Shown: one piece after another, positions 1,874-22,389 of the stretch | Layout: every line of letters starts with the position of its first letter | How positions within the stretch are numbered: the stretch's first letter is position 1 | DNA from: an uncultured Nitrososphaerales archaeon | GTDB lineage: Archaea > Thermoproteota > Nitrososphaeria > Nitrososphaerales > Nitrososphaeraceae | Direction: 5' to 3' | NCBI GenBank assembly: GCA_963709405.1 | Contig: CAVPXM010000095.1 | Coordinates: 1 to 23,390 of the forward strand | Length of the DNA stretch: 23,390 bases | Program-made: the position numbers and the translations under genes | The notes under the pieces: model-generated | Database searches by the model: none | Told to the model about the DNA's origin: nothing | Seen by the model: only the letters and a program-made list of their open reading frames with translations

Positions 1874-2025
1874 CTATTGAAATACTTCCAAACTAATGTG
1901 TATCGGTGCAATAAGTTTATGCTTTCTAATATCAGGATTCATCAATTAATTCTTTCTTATAGAATTTCAATCGTCCTGATATTGTCATTTTGAGGTATTT
2001 GCGGTAACTACCGTTCAAGATAATT

Positions 2026-2365
2026 TTACAACCCTCCGGTTATTGTTCCATAAACTAACCCTGCAATGACACTTCCAATCCATGCTATAGCCGCGTATGT
2101 TAGAACAACTTTCCATCGGACAATTCTTGATACCGCTACGGCGTAAACAACATCATATGGTTGTCCCATAAGCCATGATAAGAGTGGACCTTTGGTCATT
2201 CCCAGAGCGACTAATCCTTTACTGAGAACAATTTCTACCACTGTAGGTGTATATAGAGGTCCGTAAATCACAGATGCCATTAAGACCCCTATGCCCCCAG
2301 CGACATAATCGGACACTATGTCCTGTGGAAAGTAAGCTTGGACGTAACTAACTGTAACAATCCCT
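2026..2365 (-). pseudogene. Permease (DUF318/ArsP-like) C-terminal fragment
   Basis: The frame reads SYVQAYFPQDIVSDYVAGGIGVLMASVIYGPLYTPTVVEIVLSKGLVALGMTKGPLLSWLM, resembling the C-terminal half of two-domain permeases. The N-terminal half is absent. Confidence 0.7.
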
Positions 2366-2910
2366 CATCACGCCAAGAAGTTTGGGGACTTCCATGGCGT
2401 TCTAATGTAACTCAGGGATTCAAGGTCTCGCGCACTACATAGAGGAACGTCCATTATATTTTGGTGGATGATCTCCGCAGTTGCTAGATGATATTCTGCA
2501 TGTTAGCGATGCAAAATATTTCTTGTCCTTGAAAAAGATATGTATCTTTCAAATTCATTTATCTTGTCGATACGAATGTGTGTTTTTAATGTCTGCCCTA
2601 CTTTAAACTCTTAATTTCAAATCGGATTTACAAAATTATTGAATCATATCTAATATATTTTAACGGTCACATTGCGATCGCTATTATTTGCTATTATACC
2701 ACACGAATTTTTTACTGACCAATTTAGCCGATGTGCTTTCGTATTGTTATCATACGTACTCAATTGACAATAGAATGTTTCTACAGGTTTTTGATGTTCA
2801 CATCACACGATTGTACTTACAAATGTATGATACATCCAATATTTTGGATATTAAATATTTAGGATACAGATTATTAGAAATACAGTACTTTACAATTGTT
2901 AAATATTATA

Positions 2911-2932
2911 TCCAACAGCCTTATATCTTTCA
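2911..2932 (+). promoter_or_regulatory. Promoter (BRE/TATA) of microprotein copy 1
   Basis: TCCAACAGCCTTATATCTTTCA is nearly identical to 4921-4942. Both begin 39 nt upstream of the start codon. Confidence 0.7.
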
Positions 2933-2949
2933 ATGATCTTAGACCATAG

Positions 2950-3103
2950 GTGTTAGAAAATATAGCATATTTTGGCCTCGGCTTTGCAACTGTCTTCCTT
3001 GCACTTGAAGTCAGCCTGGCACTTTACGGCCTGCAAAATACATGACAAATCAATAAAGCCCTGTATGTACAAGCAGGTAAAGTTAGTTTTAGTGAGAGCA
3101 TAG
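2950..3103 (+). pseudogene. Membrane His/Cys microprotein, copy 1 (one extra base near 3010)
   Basis: GTG start; reads MLENIAYFGLGFATVFLALE/SAWHFTACKIHDKSIKPCMYKQVKLVLVRA*. It is a clear paralog of 4960-5103. Confidence 0.85.
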
Positions 3104-3125
3104 CAGATAAGGAAATCCGAAATGG

Positions 3126-4370
3126 ATGTGGGATAGGCCACTGCCTGCTAAGCCTAGAAACAAAGAGATCCATAGAGATACAGATTCCGAATTCCTTGAA
3201 GTTATTTATGATGCTCAAAAAGCAACGGATATTTATATCGACCTTGCACGATCAATAGATAACGAAGCTCTATTACTTTTTGCAAATAGTAAGGCTATGG
3301 TGAGGGCAGATAGACTAGGAGTTGTAGATTATTTAGTTAAAACATCCAAGAAAGGAGCATCAATAAAGATTATCTGCCCAATAACTGAGGAGAATTGCGA
3401 GATCATAAAACAAATTTCTGAGAAGGCACCCAGTATCAGAATTCTTAATGGGGGGAAATCTCAGTCTGGTCTGTTCATAGTTAATAATGCCAAGTTTATT
3501 AGATTCGAGATAAAAGAAATGCTAGCTGAAGATTTTACTGATGCAGTTGGATTTGTAGTATATTCAAACACAAAAGTCAGCGTATACTCATCTAGGTCAT
3601 TTTTTGAACTACTTTGGAACGAGCGTCTGCAATATGAAAAACTAAAAGAAGCAGATGAAATGAAAAGTGAATTTATCAATATAGTTGCTCATGAATTACG
3701 AACACCGATACAGCCCATCCTGGGACTGACTGAAATTATACATTCTGAGACAACAGATCCTAAACAACTTGATTATTTGGAAGTTGTTATAAGGAATGCA
3801 AGAAGATTACAGCGACTAACGGACAACATACTGGATGTTAGCAAGATTGAAAGCGGGTCATTAGATCCTAAGCAAGAACATTTCAATTTAAAGGATGTAA
3901 TAACAAATGCTTTAAATGATACGATAATACTAAGAAATAATTCATCCATTAACACTAATGAGAAAACAAGTGTAAGATTATACTATCAGCCGCAAGATGG
4001 TTTTGTAGAAGGAGACAAAGGAAGGATAAGTCAAGTCGTTTACAATCTAGTAAATAATGCCTTTAAATTCAGTAAGGAGGGAAGTATTATTACCGTTAAT
4101 TCAAAATTAGAAGACAACAAGATTATTGTCAGTGTAAAAGATACTGGTCAAGGCATAGACCCTAAACTACTCCCCAAACTATTTTCAAAGTTTGAAGCAA
4201 AATCCTTTTCAGGAACTGGATTAGAATTGTATATCTCCAAGAATATCATAGAAGCACATGGTGGCAGGATATGGGCTGAAAATAATAATAATATTAACGG
4301 AGAAAGAGGAGCTACCTTTCACTTTAGTTTACCACTACTCAACGTCCAACAAAACCAACTTGTTTGTTAA
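3126..4370 (+). CDS. Sensor histidine kinase (HisKA + HATPase_c), probably 5'-truncated
   Basis: Contains the H-box AHELRTPIQPI, N-box NLVNNAFKF, G1 DTGQGI and an altered G2 GTGLEL. The N-terminus looks like it starts mid-domain. Confidence 0.93.
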   Translation: MWDRPLPAKPRNKEIHRDTDSEFLEVIYDAQKATDIYIDLARSIDNEALLLFANSKAMVRADRLGVVDYLVKTSKKGASIKIICPITEENCEIIKQISEKAPSIRILNGGKSQSGLFIVNNAKFIRFEIKEMLAEDFTDAVGFVVYSNTKVSVYSSRSFFELLWNERLQYEKLKEADEMKSEFINIVAHELRTPIQPILGLTEIIHSETTDPKQLDYLEVVIRNARRLQRLTDNILDVSKIESGSLDPKQEHFNLKDVITNALNDTIILRNNSSINTNEKTSVRLYYQPQDGFVEGDKGRISQVVYNLVNNAFKFSKEGSIITVNSKLEDNKIIVSVKDTGQGIDPKLLPKLFSKFEAKSFSGTGLELYISKNIIEAHGGRIWAENNNNINGERGATFHFSLPLLNVQQNQLVC

Positions 4371-4920
4371 CGGATGACAGAAACAAAGAAAGACGATGAA
4401 AAGGAAACAATTTGTTTTATTATTAATATGTAAATAAACTATAATGCCTTTTACATTAGCATATGTCAGTTTCTATATACTGAAGACAAGCGGATGCGGT
4501 GGGCTTCAAATAGTAGAGGAATGGTAAATCAAGTAAGCATATGCAGTTTGACTGAAGCGATCCTTAACTATGACTACTCCACTTCTCTATTGTAGTCATC
4601 CATTCCCGTTACTTCAACTCTGTGCAGATCAGCTTACGCTTCCAAGACACCCGATATCCTCAAAAGGAAAACGCTTCCGTACGACTTTACCATCTTTACG
4701 TAATACTCTATATCATATATCAACCAATTGTGGCGCCTCTGGCTATCCCCAAATACGTACTTGACGAATTTGTCATATCGTTTTCATAGTCTAGAAGCCA
4801 TTCTTGATTAAGACAATCTTGACCCATTTTACAAATAGATGGTAATCCTAGCATTTTGTAAATTATATTTATCAAATATTAATTATAAAGAAATGTAATT
4901 GTTATTTGTTCAGTATTTTC

Positions 4921-4942
4921 CCCAACAGCTTTATACCTTTCA
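4921..4942 (+). promoter_or_regulatory. Promoter (BRE/TATA) of microprotein copy 2
   Basis: CCCAACAGCTTTATACCTTTCA; TTTATA at 4930-4935 is 25-30 nt before ATG 4960, consistent with a leaderless transcript. Confidence 0.7.
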
Positions 4943-4959
4943 GATATATTAGAGTAAAT

Positions 4960-5103
4960 ATGTTGGAAAATATAGCATACATAGGTCTTGGATTTGCAGC
5001 AGCATTCTTTGCGTTGGAATCAGCATGGCACTTTACGGCCTGCAAGATACATGACAAATCAATGAAGCCTTGTTTCTACAAGCAAGTTGGCTTATTGAAG
5101 TAG
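4960..5103 (+). CDS. 47-aa single-TM microprotein with H-x3-C-x2-H-x6-C tail
   Basis: MLENIAYIGLGFAAAFFALESAWHFTACKIHDKSMKPCFYKQVGLLK. Supported by the TATA position and by a paralog with many synonymous differences at 2950. Confidence 0.85.
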   Translation: MLENIAYIGLGFAAAFFALESAWHFTACKIHDKSMKPCFYKQVGLLK

Positions 5104-5121
5104 AAGGAGGTTCCGACAATA

Positions 5122-5268
5122 ATGGCAAGTATTGAAAGTAGTAGGAAAATTACAAGAAGGACAAGATTACTGAAAATGAAAACAAGCCGATCATCATCTA
5201 AAGCTATTGAAGTGGAAAGAATCATCATGCATGATGGGTTTAGTTATTTTTCGAGAGATAATAACTAA
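5122..5268 (+). CDS. 48-aa basic hypothetical microprotein
   Basis: AGGAGG SD directly after the upstream stop. Reads MASIESSRKITRRTRLLKMKTSRSSSKAIEVERIIMHDGFSYFSRDNN*. Confidence 0.55.
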   Translation: MASIESSRKITRRTRLLKMKTSRSSSKAIEVERIIMHDGFSYFSRDNN

Positions 5269-5502
5269 TAATTACTGGGTAGAACATTTGAACGCATGAA
5301 TATTGTTCAGATGCCAATGAATTAGGCCTCTCGTAGTCATAAAGACAAGGTTTTGCCAGTTTGGGATAAGGTGTTCTTGTCGTATTTGCTATCGATAATT
5401 ACAACCTAGCTGACAACTAAATTGAATATAATGATGAGGGGAAACTCCTCGGATGGATAACCGTTAACTGTTAGCGACTAACCCACTTTATAGTTTGAGC
5501 AG

Positions 5503-5880
5503 CAAGACCTCGTCATTTCAAACTACTTAGGCAAGGCATTGATAAGTAAGTAGCTAAACTCCTCATGTCTCAGCAGCGATTAAATCAAGCAATGATACAG
5601 CTAAGGTATCCTTTAAAAGGTGACAGTATACGTTACATCTATACAAACTCGCAACACAATAATCCTCCTTGTAGAGTTGTTCCCATAGAGAATACACACA
5701 TAAAGGGTTTCTACTGCTACCGTATGATAATGAAAAATATAAAGAACTGATACTCGATGGCATAGAAACAGGTACTAGGATTGTTTGGCTTTGAACTGTT
5801 TACACTAATTCTAAGAACGGCAGAAAATAGTACAAGGAATTAAGAGAAGAACGAACAAGAGACATACAAACTGATTCATA
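5503..5880 (+). pseudogene. Family B DNA polymerase C-terminal (thumb) remnant
   Basis: Across frameshifts and stops: QDLVISKLLRQGIDK..PHVSAA..YPLKGDSIRYIYTNSQHNNPPCRVVP..YDNEKYKELILDGIET.VLGLFGF..KELREERTRDIQT. DLVISK...PHV is the PolB thumb signature. Confidence 0.75.
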
Positions 5881-6014
5881 ACATGATCAAATACATACTT
5901 GATATTCTCTGATAGAGCAATAAACTGTATTGCTACTACGTATAATTGATTTATTTGCAAGAGTATCAAGAAAATATAATAATCTAGATTGCTAATTTTT
6001 CATAACACAGTGAT

Positions 6015-6244
6015 CCGCAAAGTCTATAACCCGAAACCGAAGATGGAAAGTTCCCTGAAGACTGGCAACACATATTTGATCCATTGGAAACATTTACTTT
6101 TGTAGCCGCTATCACTCATAAAATTGCATTAAGAACTTCTATAATCGACATGCTCTTTCGTAATCCAGTCATACTGGCAAGGGATTTGCAACATTCGATG
6201 TCTTATCTAAAGGAAGAGATAAAGCTGGATTTGGAATAGATTAG
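6015..6244 (+). pseudogene. LLM-class (F420-dependent) oxidoreductase internal fragment
   Basis: FDPLETFTFVAAITHKIALRTSIIDMLFRNPVILAR/FATFDVLSKGRDKAGFGID* matches the luciferase-like monooxygenase N-terminal motifs. Confidence 0.8.
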
Positions 6245-6471
6245 TTTGTCAAACCTCGCATCTGTTGGTTATTGTTCTCTACAATTCTGGAAGTGAATAA
6301 TTAGAAAGTTATGAGGTGATTTCGTTTACTGTTTTATATCGTATATATATACCATATCCTTCATATTATAAAATGAACTTTTGTCTTATATATATGGAAG
6401 AAAATGCCAAATTTGGATCTGTAAAGTCAATGAAAAATCTATAGACATATGTCTCGGATATAGTTTATGAT

Positions 6472-7061
6472 ATGTCAAATAAGAAAGAGAACAGAACCAG
6501 AGGATATAGCATATTCTCTGTATCCTTCTTTATTTCCTTGGTCTTTCACTAAGAAATACATCCAAAGCTGTGTCCAGATTTGTTAAAAGGAGCCATAGTG
6601 CAATAAGAGACTGGATTCAAAAATAGAAACCCGAGATATTAGGTTCTAAAAAGTTACGTATTACCGAATTTGTAATTGATGAAAATTGACTCAGTATATC
6701 TGGTTATGGATAGCCATTGAAAACGATAACCGAGAAATCCTTCAAATAAGCGTATCCAAAGAAAGGGAGAAACATGTTTGTTGCGGAACGTTTTATATCA
6801 AATCTTGTGAAAAGATATGGAGAACATCCTGTTTCAACAGATGGACGTACATGGTATCCACCACAGGACTGTAAATTCTTAAGAATAAGACACCATCTTC
6901 ATTCTGCATTTGAGAAAAGCATAATCGAGAGAGAACGATACAATATATCAAAGATAGAACGGAAAGGGTCCATGATTAATTTCCTTGTAGAAAAAATAAA
7001 TGTAATGGTTGAATCTGTTTGTTTGTCGTCAAAACAAGGAGTCGATATCTCAACTTTATAG
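6472..7061 (+). mobile_element. IS6-family DDE transposase, degraded
   Basis: RTEPEDIAYSLY..LGLSLRNTSKAVSRFVKRSHSAIRDWIQK*, FVIDE, YIWLWIAIE, VSTDG.TWYP and EKSIIER, with several frameshifts and a stop. Confidence 0.88.
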
Positions 7062-7185
7062 AGTCCACTTAGAATATCATTGCTTTAGAGGAGCAATAAT
7101 AGCGACACCTAAAGGTATTCTTCATGTTAGTGTCTACACCTATTAAGTAGGATTCGTTATATAGCTTATCGGTCATAAAGATATA

Positions 7186-7409
7186 ATGAGTGAAGGTCTT
7201 CAACCGAACTAACAAATACCGCATATGACATACTAAAGGTTTTAGGAAAAGATGCAGATTTTCTATACGATACTATTGATAAGTATATCAAAGATGCACA
7301 GAACGCGAACAGACAGGACTTGGTAGAAATGTGGCAAATTATAAAAAAGGATAGGCTAAAACACATACATATGTTAAAGGAAGCGTTAGAAAAAGAGATC
7401 CATGGCTAA
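7186..7409 (+). pseudogene. Small helical ferritin-like/four-helix-bundle half protein, 1-nt frameshift near start
   Basis: TATA TTATATAG at 7157. Reads MSE/SSTELTNTAYDILKVLGKDADFLYDTIDKYIKDAQNANRQDLVEMWQIIKKDRLKHIHMLKEALEKEIHG*; the span is 224 nt, one short of in-frame. Confidence 0.65.
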
Positions 7410-7419
7410 CTATATCAAT

Positions 7420-7715
7420 TAGCAGATATTCTCTAATTAGAATAATGTATTTTTTCTCTTTGAGTTTAGCTGTATCCAGGTAAGTATAGCCTAATTTTCT
7501 GAAGTAAGCAGGTATAGGAGTGGTCCTGTCAGCTCTAAAGTCCAGGATGGCTAATTTTTGGTAATTCTTGCAATCGCTTCGCCTCACGTTCTATTTTAGA
7601 TAGGCTTATCATAAAGATATTTTTTCACCTTGTATAGATTTCCATATTTATCCTGCCGCAATTTTTTTGTGCGATAGTCACCACGAAAGCAATAACTTGT
7701 CGGTTGTAACTTTAA
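7420..7715 (-). pseudogene. Possible GNAT acetyltransferase remnant
   Basis: Across frames: RQVIAFVV..LSKIEREAKR..ILDFRADRTTPIPAYFRKLGY, resembling the GNAT C-terminal motif. Confidence 0.3.
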
Positions 7716-7798
7716 GTTATTTTCAATTTTGGCTTAATTACCTAAAGTAACGCTTCTCATTACACGGTCTTCTTGAGTTCAAATATGCTACTTGATGA

Positions 7799-7844
7799 AT
7801 TTGACGGCGTATTGACTCATTTGACGTGCTATTTGACGATGACC
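7799..7844 (+). repeat. ATTTGACG short direct repeats
   Basis: ATTTGACG at 7799, 7819 and 7831, plus ATTGAC at 7811 and ATGAC at 7839. Confidence 0.7.
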
Positions 7845-7885
7845 ACATAAACCGTCGTTGATACTTAAGTAGGTAGAATACGAAT

Positions 7886-8220
7886 ATGCCTGCAGCAATT
7901 CCAGAAGCTTATAAAATCACATGTTATCATACAATGGCTCCAGGGCCTTAGCCGAGATGCCATAGCACGCGGCTAGGTCGTGAGTAACATAATCAACGGG
8001 TGGACAAATGCTCTTGGTGTATGAAGCAGATGCGCTGAGGGATTTAGCAAAATTACTCAGAATCGCCGGTCTTTCTCCGGCTCAATGTGCGATGGGTTTT
8101 AGAACTACGAAAATATTAAGTGAGCAGAATATAGATGTACCTTATATCTGACATATACAAAAAATGCAAGAACCTTGGAGTCACGTCAAGTAAAATTGTC
8201 ACTTATATTGAAGACATCCT
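7886..8220 (+). pseudogene. N-terminal remnant of a Nitrososphaeraceae HTH/coiled-coil hypothetical family
   Basis: MPAAIPEAYK/SHVIIQWLQGLSRDAIAR..VSNIINGWTNALG..EADALRDLAKLLRIAGLSPAQCAMGFR. TATA-like ACTTAAGT at 7863. Confidence 0.65.
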
Positions 8221-9315
8221 GATAAGGAGATATTACTAAACACCACCATGCTCACGTATAGTCAAGCTAGACCCCGTATGTTAGCGGCATTAGGAGCACG
8301 GACTCCAGTTGATCTAATATCCTTGGATCAAATATGGCTTGGAGAGTTCGCTCAGAAGGACTCTTGACTGATTGGCCTTACCAATTATACGAAGAATTGG
8401 GGAAGAGAAAAAGACTGGTATCAAGCAAATTGGGATGGTGGTATATATGGTGGAAAGGTTTATGGAATATGGGCATGGACTGATATTCGAGGAATATGGT
8501 ACTGGAAAGATCTTACCGTAGAGTGAAGCTGGTGTTGATCCTAATTCCTTAAAGACTTGGGACGGATATATTGGAGGCGGCAAAAAAACTAGACACAGTT
8601 CTTCCAGACCTCAAGGAATAGAAGGAATTCATCTTACAGGTGCTAGTCATTCTCCTGATTTATGGTATCCATATCTGTGGATGGTTGGAGGTGAAATACT
8701 GAGATGAAGTTCTTGGACATCCAACAAAAGGTAGCTACTGGTTTCCTGCGTATAATCGTACTGAAGGTCTAAGAGCTATGAATTTTACTCAAGGAGCAGG
8801 TCGATGCTGGAATAAAACCACAGAAAAATCATTTTTGGGGATTAGAATTTCTTGATAGGAAGTTCGCCTGAAAAGCGAGCAGAATTTGAACAGAAGGTAG
8901 GATTCATACCTATGTTCCCGGTACCAACTACGTCCCATGTGACCTCCAGTTTAATGGGAGGCTGGGAATTAGCTGTTCCTCTCACGTCGATACACAAAGC
9001 GCTTGCGTGGGAGCTGCTTACAATAATGCTAAAACCCAAAATACTTGCTTCGTATTTGGTTCACACTCGAACCTTCCAACACAGATACCTATAGGAGAGG
9101 GTCAATATTCCGGACTCATAAACAATACAACACCTTATTACGATAAATTAATCGCTCTACTCAAAGCAGGACATAGTAGACCGAGTATACCAGAATATCC
9201 TCAAATAGCTGATAATATCCACCACGCACTTGACGAAGTTTACTATGGCATAAAAGAGCCGAAGCAAGCTCTGGATGAAACGGCTAATAAATCTGCAAAA
9301 GTATTGGGTTGGTGA
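8221..9315 (+). pseudogene. ABC-type sugar/solute-binding protein (family 1), multiply frameshifted, 5' end missing
   Basis: DLISLDQIWLGEF, LWYPYLWMVGGEI, VGFIPMFPVP..SSLMGGWELAVP and RPSIPEYPQIADNI..PKQALDETANKSAKVLGW*. Confidence 0.85.
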
Positions 9316-9328
9316 GATATATGTGAGA

Positions 9329-9586
9329 ATGTCAACTAGAAAATTTGTTTCGTTGTATTATGATCGAATGAATGGATTACGGAACGGATATATTCTACAA
9401 ATTATGGGCCTCTCCTTTGTCTTTAGAATTTGCAGTACTCTTACACTTTACCTAATCTTTTTGTTAGTAGCAAGTACTGTAATCATTCCCACAATCGTTG
9501 CTCAACCAAGTTTTGCGCAGTTAGGCAGCTCCAAAGGAAAAGATTATCCTAACAGCTATGTTCGTAGAATTACATACAAATCGTGA
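9329..9586 (+). pseudogene. N-terminal fragment of an exported/membrane protein
   Basis: A hydrophobic stretch ends in PSFAQ (signal-peptidase-like). The ORF stops at the junction with the truncated MFS 3' end. Confidence 0.4.
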
Positions 9587-10996
9587 AATGGGAAAATTTC
9601 TACTCGACGGTGCACTCGCCAACCGCTATATTGCTCTGGAGCTGATGCTGCGACAATATTATATCCCCCAACCCTTGAAAATGATAAGCCAATAGCTATT
9701 ATGCCTAGGTTAATAGATATTAAAATTTGAGTTGAGTGAAACATAAATAGCAAAAAGAATCCAATCGTACTGATCACATTTCCTACTACAGTGATATTGA
9801 GATTTCCAAATTTAGATATAATAACACCAGCGATAGAAGATACTAAAAAAGATATAATCATAAAAGGAAGTTGAACACTTGCTGCTCCTATTGCATCACC
9901 ACCAAATCCTAATGGTTTTGGACTTCTTACCAATATTGGTATACTCTGATATACCATAAACATTGTAATGCTTATAATCATCAAGTTGATATTAGTTGGA
10001 AGTAAAATTTTATGGGTCATTAGATTAAGATTGACTAATGGAGAGGGCGATGTTGTTGTTGTGCTTGTGCTTGTGGTTTTTGCAGATGTTGTCACAACTG
10101 ACATTTTTCTTTCTATTCTTATAAAAAACAAAAGTGAAACTACAGATACAACTGAAAAGCTGATGAGTGGAATCAGATTAGAGGGATTGCTAATATTCTC
10201 CAAATCTGATAGTGCAAGCAAAAAGAAGGTTATCGTAACGGCTAATGTTACTGCACCTTTGATATCATCTAAATTAAGAAGTCTACTACTATCCGCTTCT
10301 GCTTCTGGCAATCTGCACCTGCTCATCACTTTCGTTCTCTTCGAGATTGTAATTGTTCTTGATTTAGCTTCGTGAATACACAGCAATAGTCAAAATCAGG
10401 TTTTGACTTTGGTGATTCCTGTTCTTCCTTACTAACATAAATTAATCTATGTACCATCACAATTAATGCAATAGCGATAGGTATTATCGAGAAAAAAGGT
10501 TGCGTGCCATCCAAAGTAACTGGACTATTGGTCCTCCTACTGCTAAACCCACTGCAGATCCACCTGCAAAAGTGCTTATAAAAATTCCTTGGGCCACCGC
10601 TAGTTTTTGTGGAGGAAATTGAGATCGTATGATACCAAAAGCTATTGGAAACATAGAGAGACCAACGCCCTGAATTATTCTAGCAATAAATAGAAAAGAG
10701 ATAGAAAATGCCAAACCACCTAAAGTAACACCTATGGTATAGATTATCATTATTATAAGTAGAATCTTCTTTTTTCCATAGATATCAGATAACTTACCAG
10801 CAATCGGCGTCATAACAGCACCTGAAATCAAGTATGCTGTAAGTATCCAAGATGATGTACTGTAATTAATATGAAAGTCCCTAATAATATCTGGAATAGC
10901 TGGTAGCAGCATAGTCTCTGCATGCATGGTTATAAGACCGATAGAACTTAGGATTGCAAGTGTTATCCAAGGGGACTGCTTGATCTTTGTCAGCAT
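9556..10996 (-). pseudogene. MFS (DHA2/EmrB-like) transporter, frameshifted and 3'-truncated near 9625
   Basis: Motif A GKLSDIYGKKK and ARIIQGVG, split across three frames (10484-10996, 10326-10514, 9556-10386). Homology ends at SAPEQYSG. Confidence 0.9.
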
Positions 10997-12100: not shown

Positions 12101-12313
12101 ATGTTCACTAATGTAGAGCATAAAAATGGAACACCTATTCGAAGACAATTATACAAATTGGAACATTTGGGCTCAGCTATGGAAAAGCATAATCAAGTAC
12201 AGTGGAGTAGAGATAAAGTACAAGAGCTTCGCAGCAAAGGATACAGCCAAAGGGAGATATCGCAAATATTGCAGATTGGATTAGCTACAGTAAATGGAGA
12301 TATATCATATTGA
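12101..12313 (+). pseudogene. HTH DNA-binding protein fragment
   Basis: WSRDKVQELRSKGYSQREISQILQIGLATVNGDISY*; the ORF stops right after the HTH. Confidence 0.7.
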
Positions 12314-12745: not shown

Positions 12746-12972
12746 GTGTATGTAATCCATTATTGACTGAGGTTTTCAAATAAAGTACAGATAGTAGAAT
12801 AATTGGCTCTTGGAACAGTTTATATACGTAAGAGTTAGCCGATGAACCGTTGGAGAGGTATAATATGTCAACGACAAACAACAGTACATTGATTGAATTA
12901 TAAGAGTATGCTATTTTGGGTTCTGCTAACCTCTCCCTGGACATATAACTATCTGTTAACTGAGGTACATGA

Positions 12973-13152
12973 TTATTCATGAGATTTCCATTTGAAACTT
13001 GCTCGTATAAGAAAAGGTTGATCACATTTTGGACATATTTCTCGTCCCATCATTGTTCCCTCTAGCTTGTACTGGCTCGAATCTTTAAATCGAAGAGTTT
13101 TTGAAGGAAATTCGTTCTTACAATGCGAACAAGTTACGGGAAATAAGATAAA
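12973..13152 (-). CDS. C4 zinc-ribbon microprotein (no canonical start found)
   Basis: HFILFPVTCSHCKNEFPSKTLRFKDSSQYKLEGTMMGREICPKCDQPFLIRASFKWKSHE*. Confidence 0.6.
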   Translation of the reverse strand, partial: FILFPVTCSHCKNEFPSKTLRFKDSSQYKLEGTMMGREICPKCDQPFLIRASFKWKSHE

Positions 13153-13269
13153 GTGCTATATATGATTAATTTTTTTCGAATAGCTTCCAAGTGTTCTGAT
13201 AAGCGTGATGCACAAACTTTCAATGATGCATACAAGAGTCCTTAATACAGAAGAATCCAAAGAACCTGA

Positions 13270-13395
13270 CTATAATGGTTCTGTCTCCATATGTTCACCG
13301 CTGTGACATACTGGACAGTCGTTGTTTTGTCTGAATCTTACATCGAAAACTATTCCACACTTTACGCAAACGTGTACGTTTTGTACCACATTCAT
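13270..13395 (-). CDS. 41-aa C4 zinc-finger microprotein
   Basis: MNVVQNVHVCVKCGIVFDVRFRQNNDCPVCHSGEHMETEPL*. TATA TTTTAAAT lies 25-32 nt upstream (13420-13427). Confidence 0.75.
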   Translation of the reverse strand: MNVVQNVHVCVKCGIVFDVRFRQNNDCPVCHSGEHMETEPL

Positions 13396-13577
13396 ATACC
13401 TCAGATATTGTAATTAAGCATTTAAAACAGGGTTTCAAAAAAGACAGTGGAAAATTATTCAGATAGATAAATAATGGTTAGTAAACAACAAGCACATAAT
13501 CATTATCCTTCTCTTCCTAAATCCTATAAACCCAATTCTTGATTACGCGGATCATTTCTGAAGACTACAGCATCTAG

Positions 13578-14827
13578 CTAGTCTTTATCTATTTGACTAT
13601 CATAATATCTTACTTCTACATCCTTTGAGTTTTTATGCTCATCTTTTCTTAGATCAATAAGATAAGCTGCTGGCGCTACATCTTTTATTATTCCAGAGGT
13701 CTCATTATAACCCTTAAATTTAACAAAAGCACCTGGAGGTCTTGAGACAGGAAATGGTAATGCAGCAATAGCTGAAGAATATTTTGTTCCTATAACGTTT
13801 AATGGAAGTTGCATCCCATCTTTTTCCTCCTCTTTAGATATCCATTCAAATTTGTTTTTAATCATATTTTGATAGTCATATGATCTAAGCTTCCTTCCAG
13901 ACTCAACGTGATTAACAATATCTATCTGAATAAATCTAGCAATAGTTGTTAGGGAAGTTAATGGCTTGTATTTGTCACGTAATGTACAAAACAATAAAAG
14001 TAAATTGTATGGAAGTATTAACGCTGGTGATAACCAGTAGATAACTCCTGCCAAGGGATTATCATTTCTCTCTGCAGTCTGCAATATGTAATTGATAATA
14101 AATTCATAGCTTTCATGCATGCTGCTGTCTTCTGTAATATCTCTTAGACCTACTGTTGATTTTGATCTGCCTGGTAATTCAATATCAATATGGGAATATC
14201 CATGAAAATTATCAGATCTAATCCTTAATCCTTTCGAGATGTCACGATATTGCATTTTGAACCTAGTTACTCCAGTTCTAAGAACCATCAATCTCATATT
14301 TACTGTCTCGCTTGGAGTTAACGGCATGTTAGCCACTGCATAAATACGATGACTTTTTGCTTTTTTCCTTATGTCAAGATCTAATGCATTCTTATCGTAA
14401 GTTATCCTTGCATATCCATAGCTAAAATCAGAATTCTGTAAAGGATAGAGTACTTGGATGTCTGTATCAGAAAGATAATTGAAAGACAGATAGTTATTAA
14501 ATGTGAATTCTTTAATTTAAGTTACAGCAAGTATTCTGTATTGAAAAGCTCGTAAGTTTATAATGTCTCTGTAAGGTAAAAAGATGACTTCATTTTTAGC
14601 AATCTTGTTATTGGTGGTCGCAGCAGGTTGTATTTGAGCTAAACTAATTGAGTTAACTACTATCTTAGTGTCCGCTTCTCTGAGTATGACAGTCTCGTAA
14701 CTTTTCCTTCAATCATTTGTCTATCGTCTTCTAGCCAACCTAGAACATTACCACAGATTTTGCATCGTAGCCATGTGATCTTGACACTTTTCTTTTCATA
14801 GTCAAGTTGATGACCAGAACAATGCAT
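13578..14827 (-). pseudogene. Cryptic ~416-aa protein: N-terminal Zn ribbon plus a central TumE/DUF7718-like motif
   Basis: ATG 14827 MHCSGH..RCKICG. A probable 1-nt deletion in the A-run at ~14702-14705 and an in-frame TAA at 14517-14519 lead into the 252-aa ORF, which contains FKMQY..LRIRSDNFHGYSHIDI. Confidence 0.6.
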
Positions 14828-15012
14828 TAAATTATACAATATGTATGCTTATGGCATTATAATACCTTTGTAACAAACTAATTCATTCAGTATGTCATTC
14901 AAGAATTGAATTGAAAACATCAAAACCATGTTTTAGTAGTGCATGTTTTGTTACGGTGATTATGTCAAAGTCATCATCGAGTGCTATTATTGGGATCTAG
15001 ATATAGTTACAT

Positions 15013-15203
15013 CATATGATAAAGAAAAATATCGTGACCTATTGCTTGATGCTGCTGAACCAGTGTTAGGGTATTTTGGATTTGATGGCTCTGTTTACAG
15101 AAGATCTGAGAACAGAGGGATTAGAAGCAGCAAACAGAAGAAATGGTGGAACGAATTGAGAGAGGAAAGAATAAAAGATGTTGAAACTGAAAGAGACAAC
15201 TGA
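15013..15203 (+). pseudogene. Family B DNA polymerase extreme C-terminal remnant (second copy)
   Basis: YDKEKYRDLLLDAAEPVLGYFGFD..KKWWNELREERIKDVETE is homologous to 5723-5875, and is followed by a T-rich tract. Confidence 0.7.
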
Positions 15204-15249
15204 GGGTTTTTTCCTTTCATCATTAAATACTATGCTACTACTAACACTG

Positions 15250-15447
15250 CTATGGCCTTATGTTGTATATCGTCGCAGTGTTTATTCGATACTGTATTAG
15301 ATCTCTAGACCTTTCCATATTTCTATATATTCTATCTCTATTCGCAAGGTCAATTTTTTGTTTATTTGCGTACTGAAACAGATCCGCTATCATATATTGG
15401 AAAGATTCTACCAAATCCTCATAGAACTTTTTATATTTCAGAACCAT
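15250..15447 (-). CDS. Hypothetical 65-aa helical protein (possibly truncated)
   Basis: Coding-like amphipathic sequence, co-oriented downstream of 15485-15886. Confidence 0.5.
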   Translation of the reverse strand: MVLKYKKFYEDLVESFQYMIADLFQYANKQKIDLANRDRIYRNMERSRDLIQYRINTATIYNIRP

Positions 15448-15484
15448 TTTATATTCTTCTATTTATGCGAGTTTGACCGAGTAT

Positions 15485-15886
15485 TCATCGTTCAAAATCA
15501 GCTGCACCTGGTTTATGATCTAGGTATTTACTCAACCAATCTAATGCATTTCTGTCTTCTTGTGAAAGCATGTTTCTAGACTCGTATGTAACTTGTTCTT
15601 TCCTGTCTATGCTTCTTAAGGCTAATACTTGCAAAATCGCATAAACGACCTGAAATTTATCGGCATTTAGCTTACGTGTATTGTTTATTCCTCGTGCTAT
15701 TTTGGTAATATCTTTTATGTCTGGCCGAGCCATATCGAAAGCCTTCAACAGGTCTTCTTGTTTACTTATATCAGATAGCTCTTGTTTATGTAAACCTTCT
15801 AACCAGCTAAATAGACCATTGACTGATTGTGGATTAGTAAGAAGCGTTTGTATCGCTTGTTTTATATGCATAAATTCATCTGACAT
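15485..15886 (-). CDS. Hypothetical 133-aa helical protein
   Basis: Intact ORF with coding-like composition. TTATAAAT lies about 25-32 nt upstream. Confidence 0.7.
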   Translation of the reverse strand: MSDEFMHIKQAIQTLLTNPQSVNGLFSWLEGLHKQELSDISKQEDLLKAFDMARPDIKDITKIARGINNTRKLNADKFQVVYAILQVLALRSIDRKEQVTYESRNMLSQEDRNALDWLSKYLDHKPGAADFER

Positions 15887-15919
15887 TAGAATTGTATGTT
15901 TACTATGGTCATTTATAAT

Positions 15920-16072
15920 TTATTTCTTAATAGGATGAGCCTGTATCCACATATCAATCGCTTCTTCTAATGCCTCACTAATATTCCCCTTTCTCAATCC
16001 CTTGTGATCGGCAATAGTTTTCCTAAATCCCTCTTCCAGCTCATCGTCGATAACGACATTCATTCTCGTCAT
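15920..16072 (-). CDS. 50-aa ribbon-helix-helix (CopG/MetJ-like) DNA-binding protein
   Basis: MTRMNVVIDDELEEGFRKTIADHKGLRKGNISEALEEAIDMWIQAHPIKK*: alternating beta strand, helix, G-x-S-helix. Confidence 0.85.
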   Translation of the reverse strand: MTRMNVVIDDELEEGFRKTIADHKGLRKGNISEALEEAIDMWIQAHPIKK

Positions 16073-16271
16073 ATTATTAATATCAGATAGTTAAGTATAT
16101 TGATGGCGCAAACCCTTCATTTATTAGATCTTTGAAAATACAGATTGGTGAGAACGCCGAATAAAGTAATTAGAAGATAGGGCTTTAAGATACCCTTAAT
16201 GCCGTCACGGTAGCTAGACCAGTATCTAAATCAGATAACTAAACTAAACTAGTCTGAGAAGGTCAACGCGC

Positions 16272-16296
16272 AAAGGAGGCTAATTCTAGCCTTTTT
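16272..16296. terminator. Hairpin with flanking A/T tracts
   Basis: AGGCTA-ATTC-TAGCCT (16277-16292) followed by a T-run. It lies just downstream of the - strand C2H2 gene. Confidence 0.4.
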
Positions 16297-16311
16297 GGAG
16301 TTAGATTTAAT

Positions 16312-16425
16312 CTAAGTCTGATTAGGGTCAGCGTGACGGGTTTCGATATGCTCTCGAAGGTTTTCTATATATTCATTACAATCTAGACAGTAGTTCTTGC
16401 CGTCACGATATTCTATTCTAGCCAT
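16312..16425 (-). CDS. 37-aa C2H2 zinc-finger microprotein
   Basis: MARIEYRDGKNYCLDCNEYIENLREHIETRHADPNQT* (Y-C-x2-C...L-x2-H-x4-H). TTTAAA lies 28-33 nt upstream. Confidence 0.8.
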   Translation of the reverse strand: MARIEYRDGKNYCLDCNEYIENLREHIETRHADPNQT

Positions 16426-16428
16426 ACA

Positions 16429-16590
16429 TTATGAAATAATTTTCATTCGTGGTTTAAATCTTGCGTTTCTTGGCCATTTTAAAAATATGCAACATACTTG
16501 ACATCTTTTAGCCGCAGATTGATAATTAGATTCGTGATACCCCTTAATGGATTTATGACGAATACATATACCATTACATATAGTAGCCAC
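16429..16590 (-). pseudogene. Thaumarchaeal Cys-rich metal-binding small protein with an internal deletion
   Basis: MATICNGICIRHKSIKGYHESNYQSAAKRCQVCCIFLKWPRNARFKPRMKIIS*. Matches the CxGxC..KRCQxC..W family but lacks the CPCCG segment normally between W and PRN. Confidence 0.7.
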
Positions 16591-16665
16591 TACTTCATTC
16601 GAGATTGTTATAGAGAACTTTTATTTAAGATTAAAGAGACCTAGAGACAATAGTGGAAAAAGCAA

Positions 16666-17070
16666 CTCTGTTGCATAAATCATTTTATTCCTTCATACAT
16701 TGTCTATACCTCTCTACATTATCGTAGCAAACATGTTATACAGTGACGCTTTTAGGATCAATTCCTTGGCCATGTTCTGAAAGTTTCTTGCAGTAACATA
16801 TTCGCCAAATGTTCTTTTAATAGACGAGAATACTGTTTCTGCCGTCCACCTTTGTCCATAGCTCACGCTATGTTTCCATCTTTTGAGATTTGTTTGTTGT
16901 CTCATTACAGACATATTCCTTGCTTGACAGTTGCTTGTCTTGACCTTGGAATTACTTCTTGTCTTTATACCAGGTTTAATATGGTTCTTGGATAGGTATC
17001 TAAAATTCTTATTACTGTCATACATACCATCTGCTAACGCACCCTTTACATTGTTATTTGCAGACACAGA
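16666..17070 (-). mobile_element. IS5-family transposase 3' half with its terminal inverted repeat
   Basis: LADGMYDS, YGQRWTAETVFSSIKRTFGE and ELILKASLYN. End sequence CTCTGTTGCATAAATC at 16666-16681. The 5' half is missing. Confidence 0.88.
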
Positions 17071-17430
17071 CATGACGGAGAGAGAAATTCCATTGTATTG
17101 AAACTGTGGGCAGGTGCTATAGCGGCAGCAAAGACAACGCGTTCGGTATATAATGTTCAAGGAGGCCAACAACGATATACCATTGAAGAAAGGATAGTAG
17201 GTTTTGCAAAAGTCGATGTGTGGGCGAATAGTGACCAAATACTTCGTGCTGGAGTTGAGGTTGCACCTATTCTAGAACTAATTGTGCGAAAACATCATGT
17301 CATTTCTTTAGAAGGCACTGATAAGAATTCTCCATGGAATGGAATGGCAAATGTTGATTACAAATCTGTAAAGAAAGCCGATTTAGTAATATCTGACCAA
17401 GATGAATGTGATTGTAACACCAAAAAATGA
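17071..17430 (+). pseudogene. Hypothetical protein, probably 5'-truncated at the IS5 junction
   Basis: The frame is open from the IS junction to TGA 17430, with coding-like composition. Confidence 0.5.
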
Positions 17431-17609
17431 GCGTTGTTTCATATGCTAACTAGTGTCCTCAACATAAACCAATTTTGTTGCTTTCGAAATTATCTCTATC
17501 CTTCTTGAAGAAATAAAAGTATGCAAGTTGAAGTATATATCAAGCACGAAAAATGCAAATCTATCATCAAATGCAACTAAATAATGTGGTAAAAGAGGTA
17601 ACGACCTGA

Positions 17610-17741
17610 ATGAAACGCTGTATGTACTGGTCACTATCACAAGCGCCATTATTCAAACAACTTGACGACGGTAAAAACTATTACTGGACTGACTCATGTA
17701 TCTCAAGACATTATCATGAATTTGTTGAAGCAATAGAGTGA
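17610..17741 (+). CDS. 43-aa TRASH/YHS-like microprotein (degenerate Cys pattern)
   Basis: MKRCMYWSLSQAPLFKQLDDGKNYYWTDSCISRHYHEFVEAIE*. GAGGT SD upstream; the stop overlaps the next GTG. Confidence 0.55.
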   Translation: MKRCMYWSLSQAPLFKQLDDGKNYYWTDSCISRHYHEFVEAIE

Positions 17742-17884
17742 CCGCATCAGACTCTATATTTCCTGAGTGTGACTATTGTCATAGGCATAAAGATATCAAG
17801 ACCTTTATAACATGCGGTTTCTGTGGTAAGAAGATGTGTTCTGCTTGCTGTATAAATGATGCTGGAAAGTGTGTAGGAAAATGA
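17738..17884 (+). CDS. 48-aa 8-Cys B-box/AN1-like zinc-finger microprotein
   Basis: MTASDSIFPECDYCHRHKDIKTFITCGFCGKKMCSACCINDAGKCVGK*, with GTGA and ATGA overlaps at its two ends. Confidence 0.8.
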   Translation: MTASDSIFPECDYCHRHKDIKTFITCGFCGKKMCSACCINDAGKCVGK

Positions 17885-18153
17885 CTGAACCTCAACCAAA
17901 TCCAAATCCACCACCATCAATAGAAGACTTTGTTAATCTATTCTTAGAGACAAGAGTAAAGCCTATCTGGAAATGTCCTGTCTGCTTAAACCCCGTCTGG
18001 AATGATGGGCGAATACTAAAGCAAGGAAGAACCGGTCAACACATGCATACTCATACTATCCTAGAGTTTCAAAGAGAGTTAAAGTATAACCTAAGTCATG
18101 GTGTAGGTATAGGAACAGGCGAGTCACATGGATGGAAAAATGACCGAGCATAA
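17881..18153 (+). CDS. C2H2-like zinc-finger protein (90 aa)
   Basis: ATG 17881 overlaps the upstream stop. Contains WKCPVC..QHMHTH. Confidence 0.7.
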   Translation: MTEPQPNPNPPPSIEDFVNLFLETRVKPIWKCPVCLNPVWNDGRILKQGRTGQHMHTHTILEFQRELKYNLSHGVGIGTGESHGWKNDRA

Positions 18154-18520
18154 CTACAAGGTCTGGATTGTGTATCATGGCTATTACTCAGACAAGAATA
18201 TAGAACGAGTGTTTGACTCAAAGGAAAAGGCAGAGAAACATCTTAACAAGATATTATTTGGTGAGGAAGATCATTACCAAACAAGACTACAGCGAGCACA
18301 AATAGACCTTGCAGACTATGAACGCGATCCAAAACAATACATGGAGAATCACCACTTACAAGGACATGCAAAACTGTTTGATAATCCATTATACGAACGT
18401 CTAAACACTATTCATGCTAATCTACAGAGTAGTGTATTATACTGGAAAAAAGTCATATCAGGTGAACGCAAGCCAGACTCTTCAGACGATTACTATATTG
18501 AAGAATACGATGTCTACTAA
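18140..18520 (+). CDS. Virus-type hypothetical protein (DUF7336-like) with coiled-coil insertion
   Basis: KVWIVYHGYYSDKNIERVFDSKEKAEK...YYIEEYDV is a pattern common in phage and archaeal virus proteins. Confidence 0.7.
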   Translation: MTEHNYKVWIVYHGYYSDKNIERVFDSKEKAEKHLNKILFGEEDHYQTRLQRAQIDLADYERDPKQYMENHHLQGHAKLFDNPLYERLNTIHANLQSSVLYWKKVISGERKPDSSDDYYIEEYDVY

Positions 18521-18719
18521 CCTATGCCGAGTCTAGATAACTCAGGCAGACTATACCCACACTGTAGATCAGATTTACAACAGCGTTAAACCTTCTAGAC
18601 GTAAATACCCAAACTTCGGTGCTCCTACCACAGTCAGAGCAATAACATGTCACTAGGAGAAAGGGACGCACTGGATGCTATTCTGTATATCATGTGATCT
18701 CTGGAAAGTAGATGATTGA
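18510..18719 (+). pseudogene. Decayed zinc-ribbon microprotein with two in-frame TAG codons
   Basis: MSTNLCRV*...RKYPNFGAP..TCH*EKGTHWMLFCISCDLWKVDD*. Overlaps both neighbours. Confidence 0.45.
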
Positions 18720-18787
18720 CCAGTTACATATGTTTTAATTGTGGTAACGCTTGGATCGAACCACGACTATATGTCACAAGCCTGTAA
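18716..18787 (+). pseudogene. CxxCG microprotein remnant
   Basis: TTG start overlaps the upstream TGA. Reads MTSYICFNCGNAWIEPRLYVTSL*. Confidence 0.4.
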
Positions 18788-19051
18788 ACAACGTTGCCTT
18801 CACCCAAATTTTCCACTACATCTTCTCAAAACAGTAGAGACAATAGATAGATATCCAAAACGAGCAAGCAACTTCTTACAAAAGAACTTCTTACAAAAGC
18901 ATAAGATTAGTGACTGCAGAATATGCAAGACTAATACATAACAGATTCACAATTTACTTGGTTATGTCCATGTTGTGGTAGATGGCTATCTAGGAAGTTG
19001 AGCACTAAACAACAACCATCCGTAAAAGTAGAGTTAGAAATTTCACGCTAA
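18771..19051 (+). pseudogene. Cys-rich protein (Cx3C..CxxC..CPCCG), frameshift near 18933
   Basis: MSQACKQRCLH..DCRICKT/YITDSQFTWLCPCCGRWLSRK..ISR*. Confidence 0.55.
18870..18899 (+). repeat. Perfect 15-bp tandem duplication
   Basis: AACTTCTTACAAAAG x2 (NFLQK NFLQK). Confidence 0.95.
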
Positions 19052-19672
19052 GTGATGATAAGGTAGCAATGCTCTACGTTTTCTACTAAAGAACGGTAAT
19101 ACATCAGACGATGTAGGAATAGACGACTACGAGAACAAGTTGAAGAAGTTAGCAGCAAAATTTGCTAGGGCTTCACTACAATAAATGGTCCTTACATTCT
19201 ACGAATTTTAAACAAACGGCAACCAAATATCAACACAAGCACAGACATTTAAGCCAATAACTGAACCGTTTCATACAACTACACTAGATGTACTTACTGC
19301 AATAGCAACACTTTAGAGTCAATGTCCATATCTGATAATGAAAACAGCAGATCATACCTTGTTGATTTATAACACCGACCAACCAATTTCTGTCGCTTCA
19401 GTAAAGTTAGCGACGATAGTATGGAATAATGTGTATATATGAAAAACATAAAGAGCGCTGTGAGATTATAATATATGCTCTGAGCTAGTCGCCAATGGAC
19501 GAAGGTAATATATCACCAGGTGAAAAAGACCTTTGACTTGACTTACATTTTTCTGTTTGTTTCAATTATTATTCCCTTCATCTGTCCTACGGCCACTTAA
19601 GATACTATTATGCTACAAGCAAGCTATCTAGGAGCATCAAACTTAAATAATTACTTCAAGACCTCTATTATT

Positions 19673-21738: not shown

Positions 21739-22389
21739 ATATGGTAAAGCATAGTTGTCAACCTTATTTCATCCGATAATTCATCAGGGATTCTTTTGAC
21801 AGTTGGAAGGCATTTGACTCTACTGTAAGCCACTCCTATGCATAGCAAAATCACAAGCTATATGTCTATCTATTTTTGGGATGGGTTCTTGGATACGTAC
21901 CTTAAGTATGATAGAAAATGTGTCTTCAAACATTAGTATCCTTATAGACATGTCTTTTATCCTTCTAATGAGTGGGAACATCACATGGTCAAATAGAAGA
22001 GTACGTGCTACAGGACATGTTTGAATGGCTCACATCTCCAGCGAGAGAAGTGTATGAATTTGGACGCTAGAGTAATATTCAAGTGGGGATATAGTGTCTA
22101 GTTTTTAAGCCCAATATTTATGTTGATGTAAGTGCTGCTTATCTCTGTTCGAGTGAAGATTAAATTGTCAATTTTTAAGGTAGAGATTAATGAAGGAAAT
22201 GCTTTGTTGCACGAATCCGATATTAGTCAACTAACTTTAAAACATTGGCCTAAAAAGGAGTAATCCGCATTTGACCTATTCCTGGAGGATACATAAAAGC
22301 ATTGCAAGATGACGATCTTTCTGAATTATGCAACAAAGCAGAAGGAAATAAAAAATATGTATTAATATACTATTTAGCAGAGAGGTAGT

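Follow-up and report, generated by a model that had tools for sequence, protein, structure and literature searches.

Conserved zinc-finger-like microprotein genes and decaying copies share an island in a Nitrososphaeraceae genome

Stand-alone zinc-finger genes of haloarchaea have regulatory or adaptive roles, according to the sections of four reports on which we draw (PMC6562870, PMC10716476, PMC11241148, PMC2253796). They include the C(P)XCG microproteins HVO_2753 and HVO_0758 of Haloferax volcanii and Brz of Halobacterium salinarum, which are shorter than 70 amino acids (aa) and carry one zinc knuckle pair. A second precedent is the "dark-matter" island: a cluster of small, narrowly distributed, fast-evolving and uncharacterised genes (Makarova et al. 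2014, PMC4158269). In the part of that study used here, Thaumarchaea have the largest share of dark-matter-island genes, up to 22% in a Nitrososphaera genome, and richness in small proteins is reported. Here we describe positions 12,973 to 19,051 of contig CAVPXM010000095.1, from an uncultured Nitrososphaeraceae archaeon. The window that we analysed is the whole contig (23,390 bp) and genes are named by their position in it. A sequence-only reading had proposed that this locus hides about 11 zinc-finger microproteins. As judged by comparison with homologues, four of these (13270, 14827, 16312 and 17610) are solid, conserved and lineage-specific microprotein genes. One more is probable, two are decayed copies, one is doubtful and three are unsupported. 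On balance, we favour the view that the locus is an accessory, recombination-prone "dark-matter" island of independently transcribed zinc-finger microprotein genes.

The locus resembles both precedents in part. Like the haloarchaeal microproteins, the predicted proteins are archaeal and within 70 aa (41, 55, 37, 43 and 48 aa for 13270, 14827, 16312, 17610 and 17738, respectively). The fit to a pair of C(P)XCG motifs is loose. Gene 13270 has CVKCG and CPVCH, 14827 has CSGH and CKICG, and 16312 has CLDC and a His pair. The haloarchaeal proteins differ in that they come from another phylum and no sequence relationship to them was found. Furthermore, unrelated families here share one island. As expected of dark-matter genes, the zinc-finger open reading frames (ORFs) have no Pfam or NCBIfam family over cut-off, and their spread is patchy within one family of genomes. 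The islands of Makarova et al. differ in turn; the text of that study covered here (PMC4158269) describes no zinc-finger microprotein clusters, whereas Cys/His microproteins, with insertion sequence (IS) and family-B DNA polymerase (PolB) debris, dominate our locus. The same study was the only match to a literature search on Nitrososphaera small proteins and zinc. The families are new; zinc-finger microproteins as a kind were already known.

The host genome comprises 4.83 Mb in 100 contigs. It contains an archaeal small subunit (SSU) rRNA and amoA, while mcrA was not found. Therefore, the host is an ammonia-oxidising archaeon, as had been supposed. Relatives of its proteins are labelled Nitrososphaeraceae. 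Ammonia-oxidising archaea drive soil nitrification, and much of their gene content counts as dark matter.

We defined a zinc-finger-like ORF as one of at least 25 aa with a CxxC and a second Cys/His knuckle 6–40 residues away. Positions 12901–19100 contain seven, compared with 0.43 ± 0.67 (maximum 3) in 300 dinucleotide shuffles. The same interval has 17 CxxC motifs, compared with 2.55 ± 1.75 (maximum 9) after dinucleotide shuffling. A CxxC density above that of shuffled sequence, which the sequence-only reading had proposed to check, is thus borne out. Across 724 fixed windows of 6.2 kb in the genome, the count of zinc-finger-like ORFs never reaches seven. With a sliding window, the island is the densest cluster in the genome, having eight ORFs, and the next two clusters have six each. 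The enrichment is real. The genome-wide distribution is heavy-tailed and several smaller clusters exist. Therefore, the island is the extreme case of a genome-wide habit, not a unique object. Co-location of small Cys-rich genes also extends beyond this genome. Around homologues in other genomes (31 loci, 85.7 kb) there are 37 further zinc-finger-like ORFs against 12.5 expected, where the expectation is this genome's background rate and the loci are related and partly syntenic.

Homologues were sought in 121 genomes of the family Nitrososphaeraceae, representing 18 genera. Conserved Cys and His residues in homologues, and dN/dS (the ratio of nonsynonymous to synonymous substitution rates), had been suggested as checks. 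Both favour the genes: four families are conserved, and their median dN/dS of 0.09–0.31 is well below 1. Alignments of the 13270, 14827 and 16312 families are referred to as A1, A2 and A3. Four conserved microprotein families with clear metal-ligand signatures are now defined. None matched a Pfam or NCBIfam family over cut-off. Sequence searches of the PDB gave best E values of 0.015 (PF0610 zinc ribbon) for A1, 0.082 (eS27) for A2 and 0.76 for A3.

Gene 13270 (13270–13395, minus strand) encodes a predicted C4(+His) zinc-ribbon microprotein of 41 aa. Homologues, with open frames of about 42–46 aa, occur in 33 of the 121 genomes, a count that takes in the unpublished genome G092, and in nine of the 18 genera. 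The family consensus is C-x2-C-G ... D-C-P-x-C-H-S-G-x-H. All 11 sequences share C10, C13, C27, C30, H31 and H35. Median dN/dS is 0.235 and the maximum 0.50 (42 usable of 55 pairs). Outside the family, A1 finds weak generic zinc-ribbon matches only, of 20–25 bits, in 18 of 250 genomes of the phylum. C4 ribbons had been claimed for both 13270 and 12973. The former is confirmed; the latter (12973–13053, minus strand) is, in the three-frame translation, a 26-aa ORF with a single CxxC. Its codon score is null-like, and it is unsupported as a zinc finger. In six of 11 loci from other genera, the 13270 homologue adjoins a gene for a protein of 128 aa, in which additional CxxC pairs accompany a B-box-like N-terminus (L013:958-1344, L015 and L019–L022). 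This protein has paralogues in the present genome at C20:20588-20887 and C25:28419-28595. Its best Pfam match, ANCHR-like_BBOX, is under cut-off (E=0.02).

Gene 14827 (14660–14827, minus strand) encodes a 55-aa microprotein with a CxxH...CxxCG pattern. The mechanical ORF extends to 14839; comparison with homologues places the start at the ATG at 14827. The CxxH/CxxC motifs and start given by the sequence-only reading fit the homologues. These are mostly 57-aa open frames, found in 16 of the 121 genomes and three genera; both this count and one alignment row draw on the unpublished genome G054. Thirty columns, including C7, H10, C26 and C29, are invariant in 8 of 8 sequences. Median dN/dS is 0.094 (13 usable of 28 pairs). 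The AlphaFold model of A2 has three strands and a C-terminal helix, with a mean pLDDT (predicted local distance difference test) of 67.5. Foldseek found no PDB structure matching this model at E<=0.001; the best matches (E ~0.7-1.6), which include MSS4, are leads only.

Gene 16312 (16312–16425, minus strand) encodes a 37-aa microprotein with the pattern C-x2-C-x9-H-x4-H (CCHH) and a conserved DPNQT tail. Homologues occur in seven of the 121 genomes and two genera. All 7 aligned sequences keep C13, C16, H26 and H31; the alignment omits two broken copies, one having Phe for the first Cys and the other an internal stop. Median dN/dS is 0.168 (42 of 45 pairs). A copy on contig C23 encodes an identical protein and has one synonymous difference. 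Classical C2H2 zinc fingers (beta-beta-alpha) occur in crenarchaeal viruses. Gene 16312 shares with them C-x2-C ... H-x4-H and hydrophobic residues between the pairs. However, the spacer is x9 in 16312 and x18 in 17881, not 12, and neither matches zf-C2H2 at E<=1. The best Pfam match of 16312 is zf-dskA_traR, under cut-off (E=0.0035).

Gene 17610 (17610–17741, plus strand; 43 aa) is the first of a plus-strand run. Four homologous copies were found (E<=2e-4), in two genomes of the same genus (three in G004 and one in G005), with open frames of 47–49 aa. Median dN/dS is 0.305 (8 of 15 pairs). These relatives read C-x2-C-x24-C-x3-H-x-H. The window copy reads CMYW and so has lost one Cys ligand. 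DNA similarity to the relatives stops exactly at the 17610 stop codon. In three of the four related loci (L064, L065 and L067) a DUF7336-like 59-aa gene follows after 12 nt. Conversely, the window has the extra ORFs 17738 and 17881 between 17610 and a longer, 130-aa DUF7336 gene. TRASH domains have the pattern C-x19-22-C-x3-C. The family of 17610 is real but the TRASH-like label given to it is not upheld; 17610 fits neither profile nor pattern and has no Pfam family at E<=1. Together, the 13270, 14827 and 16312 families and the 17610 type are patchily spread within one family of genomes.

In this genome, the frequency of a TATA-like motif upstream of long ORFs peaks two-fold at -45 to -26 relative to the ATG. 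At -40 to -24 the motif precedes 13.3% of 1132 long ORFs and 5.6% of random positions. In the island, 6 of 13 ORFs have the motif at -40 to -24, including 13270 (at -31), 14827 (at -36) and 16312 (at -33). To this extent, the TATA boxes claimed earlier are present. A scan for sigma-70 promoters and terminators gave results at shuffle level; this model is inapplicable to archaea.

Contigs from two RNA libraries of one study cover 28 of 30 and 19 of 30 bins. They span 14635–14925, 16269–16426 and 17855–18122, and so lie over 14827 and 16312. Depth is 20–21 over 13107–13520, which includes 13270, and contigs also lie over the DUF7336 gene (18128–18520). The IS fragment of the island has a depth of 124–599x in two DNA runs compared with 0–0.6 in RNA-library runs. 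This argues that the signal is RNA, not plain DNA carry-over. Positions 17040–17453 are uncovered and 16626–17039 have a depth of 0.3–0.6; the IS contrast apart, such gaps in cover are no evidence of silence. The four solid genes are probably expressed.

We propose the following interpretation. A soil Nitrososphaeraceae ammonia oxidiser with a large genome would have, in its chromosome, an island that has collected genes for unrelated single-domain zinc-binding microproteins of 37–55 aa, brought together by IS activity and segmental duplication. The proteins of intact genes most likely fold around one zinc ion. This would be held by four Cys/His residues in 13270, 14827 and 16312, probably also in 17738, and in the relatives of 17610. 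Each protein would be a small adaptor or regulator, and a regulatory role through binding of nucleic acid or another protein is probable. Both the zinc fold and the regulatory role are modelled on the haloarchaeal zinc-finger microproteins and Brz. The island would also hold copies in decay, namely two remnants of a second family described below, 17610 with its missing Cys, and the frame-dependent 17881. What we observed directly is the enrichment, the conservation and purifying selection, the promoter-like motifs, the representation in RNA libraries and the decay that some copies show.

The remnants belong to what we call the CPCCG family. Intact members, of about 80–107 aa, combine Cx3C, CxxC and CPCCG knuckles with a basic KPRNLKYK tail. 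The family is present in 119 of the 121 Nitrososphaeraceae genomes (a count that takes in unpublished G054, G092 and G114), where single genomes have as many as 26 matches. It includes at least 1787 predicted proteins, whose core regions are 71–94% identical; all are unnamed and none has a Pfam family. In the ESM Atlas the protein falls among unnamed Nitrososphaerota clusters, and its AlphaFold model (A4) is poor (mean pLDDT 54.3). Among the matches listed in a literature search for the string 'CPCCG', none was related. Five intact copies occur in this genome (C30:79172-79426, C53:160479-160802, C63:234264-234500, C42:9898-10140 and C47:14162-14437) and have no neighbours in common. A pair formed by a CPCCG and a CCHH gene recurs in relatives, in either order. 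This family may be a more important target than the island genes.

Both island copies descend from the CPCCG family, and neither is an intact member. ORF 16429 (16429–16590, minus strand) is a divergent copy of 53 aa with an internal deletion. It keeps Cx3C and CxxC, and a gap of 15 alignment columns removes the CPCCG knuckle. Many changes fall at positions conserved in at least 90% of the family. Compared with the copy on C23, 16429 has 3.1 differences per 100 nt, near the intergenic value of 3.8, against about 1 (0.7–1.0) for the neighbouring CCHH, RHH and 133-aa genes. Its codon score is in the null range. Hence, 16429 looks like a decaying copy. The other, 18771 (18771–19051, plus strand), is a frameshifted pseudogene. 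In the three-frame translation, Cx3C and CxxC are in one frame and CPCCG (18965–18979) in another. The sequence-only reading had assigned Cx3C/CxxC/CPCCG to both; the family motifs are there, but CPCCG is missing from 16429 and the motifs of 18771 are split over frames.

ORF 17738 (17738–17884, plus strand) is an orphan of 48 aa with eight Cys, three CxxC and B-box/RING-like spacing. Three or more CxxC occur in 29 of 46,228 real genome ORFs of 25–100 aa compared with 1 of 54,288 in a first-order Markov genome. The ORF overlaps its neighbours by GTGA (17610/17738) and ATGA (17738/17881), in agreement with the start/stop overlaps reported earlier. We consider 17738 a probable gene. Its codon score is null-like, and neither genome searches nor a large predicted-protein collection contained a homologue. 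The best Pfam match, Prok-RING_2, has E=0.0036 and 17.9 bits against a cut-off of 22.4. An hhalign comparison with the B-box-like neighbour family (A5) gave a probability of 8%. The eight-Cys motif is therefore present as described, and the likeness to B-box or RING is at motif level only.

The ORF at 17881 (17881–18153, plus strand) is the window's own called protein, a hypothetical protein of 90 aa (P0121). In the window's frame it contains CPVC...HMHTH. The sole homologue, P0122 (69 aa), has CPVF instead and, after GQ, continues in another frame; there was no credible match in 120 family genomes. All four sequencing runs examined have an extra A after 18037 (AA in the window, AAA implied), and P0122 agrees. 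The difference at 18037 may be a true variant or an assembly error. The zinc-finger reading of 17881 is doubtful because the His half is confined to this assembly's frame. Thus, of the two C2H2 proteins proposed earlier, 16312 is confirmed and the His part of 17881 depends on frame. The ORFs were also said to be hidden. This does not apply to 17881, which had been called already, and does apply to 17738, absent from the predicted-protein collection. Hence, automated gene calling misses at least one such gene. For the decayed CxxC forms claimed at 18510 and 18716, the three-frame translation yields no ORF with a credible motif pair. The total of about 11 microproteins shrinks accordingly. Within one island, living genes can be told apart from look-alike debris.

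Several points weigh against the reading that we favour. The RNA evidence consists of contigs from oligo-dT libraries of one study, which give no strand, ends or level. Some of these contigs are 90–95% alike and may derive from relatives. Codon scores of the small Cys-rich ORFs are intermediate (0.07–0.11) or, for 17738 and 16429, null-like. The P value for enrichment around homologues is overstated because the loci are interrelated and partly syntenic and the background is this genome's own rate. Several Haloferax C(P)XCG proteins bind no zinc, in the part of PMC11241148 on which we draw. Finally, 29 zinc-finger-like ORFs lie within 5 kb of the genome's integrases against 19.5 expected (P ~0.03), a mild enrichment, and contig C42 has an integrase with a truncated copy of the 133-aa gene of the island about 4 kb away. 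Therefore, part of the island may be of mobile-element origin. An integrase could also lie beyond the ends of the 23-kb contig.

The alternative that survives best derives the island from an integrated virus, plasmid or other mobile element, whose regulatory or early region would have decayed here. The small zinc-finger, ribbon-helix-helix (RHH) and helix-turn-helix (HTH) proteins would once have controlled the element or interfered with its host. We regard this as unlikely, while granting that much is compatible with it. Small zinc-finger and RHH proteins abound in archaeal viruses. The locus has many tiny zinc-finger genes, an RHH gene, a PolB remnant and an HTH gene (12101–12313; PHROG HTH matches), and its families are patchy and multi-copy. 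A 1.3-kb block with CPCCG, CCHH, RHH and 133-aa genes occurs twice, and part of it a third time near the C42 integrase. The recurrence of the CPCCG–CCHH pair in relatives would also suit a mobile unit. So would the proximity to integrases, which is a 1.5-fold enrichment within 5 kb of 14 integrase matches over cut-off. A different, 68-aa zinc-finger family stands directly beside the C42 integrase and recurs in other zinc-finger clusters.

The contig itself tells against an integrated element. None of the genome's 28 tyrosine recombinase matches (PF00589) is on it, no tRNA was found on it, and the island has no flanking direct repeat longer than 17 nt; the longest repeats (16–17 nt) are inside it. 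A PHROG search gave no match for any zinc-finger ORF and matched only the DUF7336 and HTH proteins. A search of IMG/VR viral contigs, proposed earlier as a check, found no relatives of A1 or A3 and one marginal match to A2 (15 residues, E=6e-4). The zinc-finger-like ORFs show no association with the genome's PolB copies (12 within 5 kb, this contig excluded, against 16.2 expected), and a link between them was rejected. Neighbours of the homologues elsewhere include cellular genes (major facilitator superfamily (MFS), P-type ATPase and a heavy-metal-associated (HMA) protein). PADLOC detected no defence system; it gave no more than generic winged-helix matches, for a MarR-like ORF, and a match of the 133-aa protein to Cas12c at 15 bits. 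The flanks of the island, mapped in five genomes of the same genus, fall on scattered contigs with no synteny and no definable empty site. Separate transcription units lie on both strands, interleaved with the IS fragment, the PolB remnant and pseudogenes; the island is not one module. With no integrase, att repeat, tRNA or viral hallmark on the contig, the integrated-element or host-takeover reading is not supported, and that provirus label has been removed.

Elsewhere in the genome, C42:159-2373 is probably a small integrated element. Here several small genes in a row, including one of the 68-aa CPRC...CEKC zinc-finger family, directly adjoin the gene for a tyrosine recombinase of 400 aa. 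The same family is found at C40:27455-27661, C14:3842-4048 and C33:25824-26027.

A bolder idea, which we hold with little confidence, extends the accessory-island reading. Hot spots in soil Nitrososphaeraceae would gather and turn over unrelated single-domain zinc-finger microprotein genes, an exchangeable toolkit of tiny regulators or conflict factors that would pass from genome to genome without a recognisable vehicle. The widespread, multi-copy CPCCG protein would be a major uncharacterised nucleic-acid-binding factor in ammonia-oxidising archaea. Around homologues in other genera, zinc-finger-like ORFs are about three times as frequent as expected, with this island as the most extreme example.

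Improbable, in our estimation, is that the small Cys/His proteins handle metals, by buffering or chaperoning zinc or copper, and are not regulators. The neighbourhood of 14827 prompts the idea. Its homologue directly follows another Cys-rich gene, of 83–120 aa, in five of seven loci (L055–L059, one genus), and three of these (L056, from unpublished G054, L058 and L059) have an HMA-domain protein and a P-type ATPase C-terminus within about 1–1.5 kb. The window carries MarR, ArsP-fragment and P-type ATPase genes. However, the association is limited to one genus, and synteny makes the loci non-independent. Pfam places the ATPase of the window among type-II cation pumps and not among heavy-metal pumps. 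A single four-ligand site in each protein is the pattern of structural zinc and is not metallothionein-like, and the other families lack such neighbours.

Scarcely credible is the notion that the ORFs are chance products of AT-rich sequence and not genes: it holds for 12973, 18510 and 18716, and codon scores are null-like for 12973, 16429, 17738, 18522–18671 and 18741–18941, but shuffles yield 0.43 such ORFs, not seven, three CxxC in one short ORF are about 30 times rarer in a Markov genome, and conservation, with invariant ligands and dN/dS well below 1, refutes it for 13270, 14827, 16312 and 17610.

Other parts of the island are as follows. A 252-aa protein without a zinc-finger motif is encoded at 13578–14336 (minus strand). 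Its family is small and uncharacterised; 41 cluster representatives match at E<=0.001, and full-length relatives have about 50 more N-terminal residues. It gave weak DUF7718 matches only and no usable ESM Atlas match. A remnant of the PolB C-terminus occupies 15006–15191 (plus strand), within ORF 14943–15203. It is 50–55% identical to the last 58–64 residues of two PolB ORFs on contig C13, and paralogues of the remnant ORF are located at the 3' ends of PolB matches. A second such remnant lies in the window at 5520–5878. The genome has 14 PolB matches at about 11 places (on C13, C91, C33, C42, C51, C58, C6, C36, C59 and C93), several with internal stops, which is unusually many for an archaeon.

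The RHH gene (50 aa, 15920–16072; RHH_6, E=2.2e-4, under cut-off) and the 133-aa gene that comes after it, of unassigned function, together occupy 15485–16072 on the minus strand. The two genes may work together as a regulatory pair or as one resembling a toxin-antitoxin system. Joined by 16312 and 16429, they make up the duplicated 1.3-kb block (15279–16592), which is 97.6% identical to C23:1087-2395 and in part 95.8% identical to C42:5633-6062. The RHH and 133-aa genes have 0.7–1.0 differences per 100 nt from the C23 copy. The halves of the island are separated by the IS fragment (16656–17064, minus strand), the C-terminal part of a DDE transposase (DDE_Tnp_1, E=6.7e-12) with about 30 copies in the genome. 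The DUF7336 gene (18128–18520, plus strand; Pfam E=1.6e-9, phrog_3002 E=6.6e-5) is the last of the plus-strand run and encodes no zinc finger.

The contig is a mosaic, with segments 88–99% identical to five other contigs. Positions 1–7548 match C23 (99% identity), 4686–9622 match C69 (94–99%) and 9623–10846 match C61 (93%). The stretches of 93–99% identity (1–10846 and 15279–16592) may have arisen by recent segmental duplication or may reflect the presence of a second strain; the contamination estimate for the assembly is 3.67%. Gene debris on the contig includes a truncated P-type ATPase, an ArsP fragment, an MFS gene in two pieces, a truncated short-chain dehydrogenase/reductase (SDR), a MarR-like ORF and the DDE-transposase fragment. 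No Rfam match was found on the contig. Three repeats were detected outside the island. One of about 650 bp (6410–7063; >30 copies, ~80% identity) overlaps a 95-aa ORF without a Pfam match. The others, of about 133 bp (21758–21890; >30 copies) and about 142 bp (22199–22341; about 11 copies, 80–95% identity), resemble miniature inverted-repeat transposable elements (MITEs).

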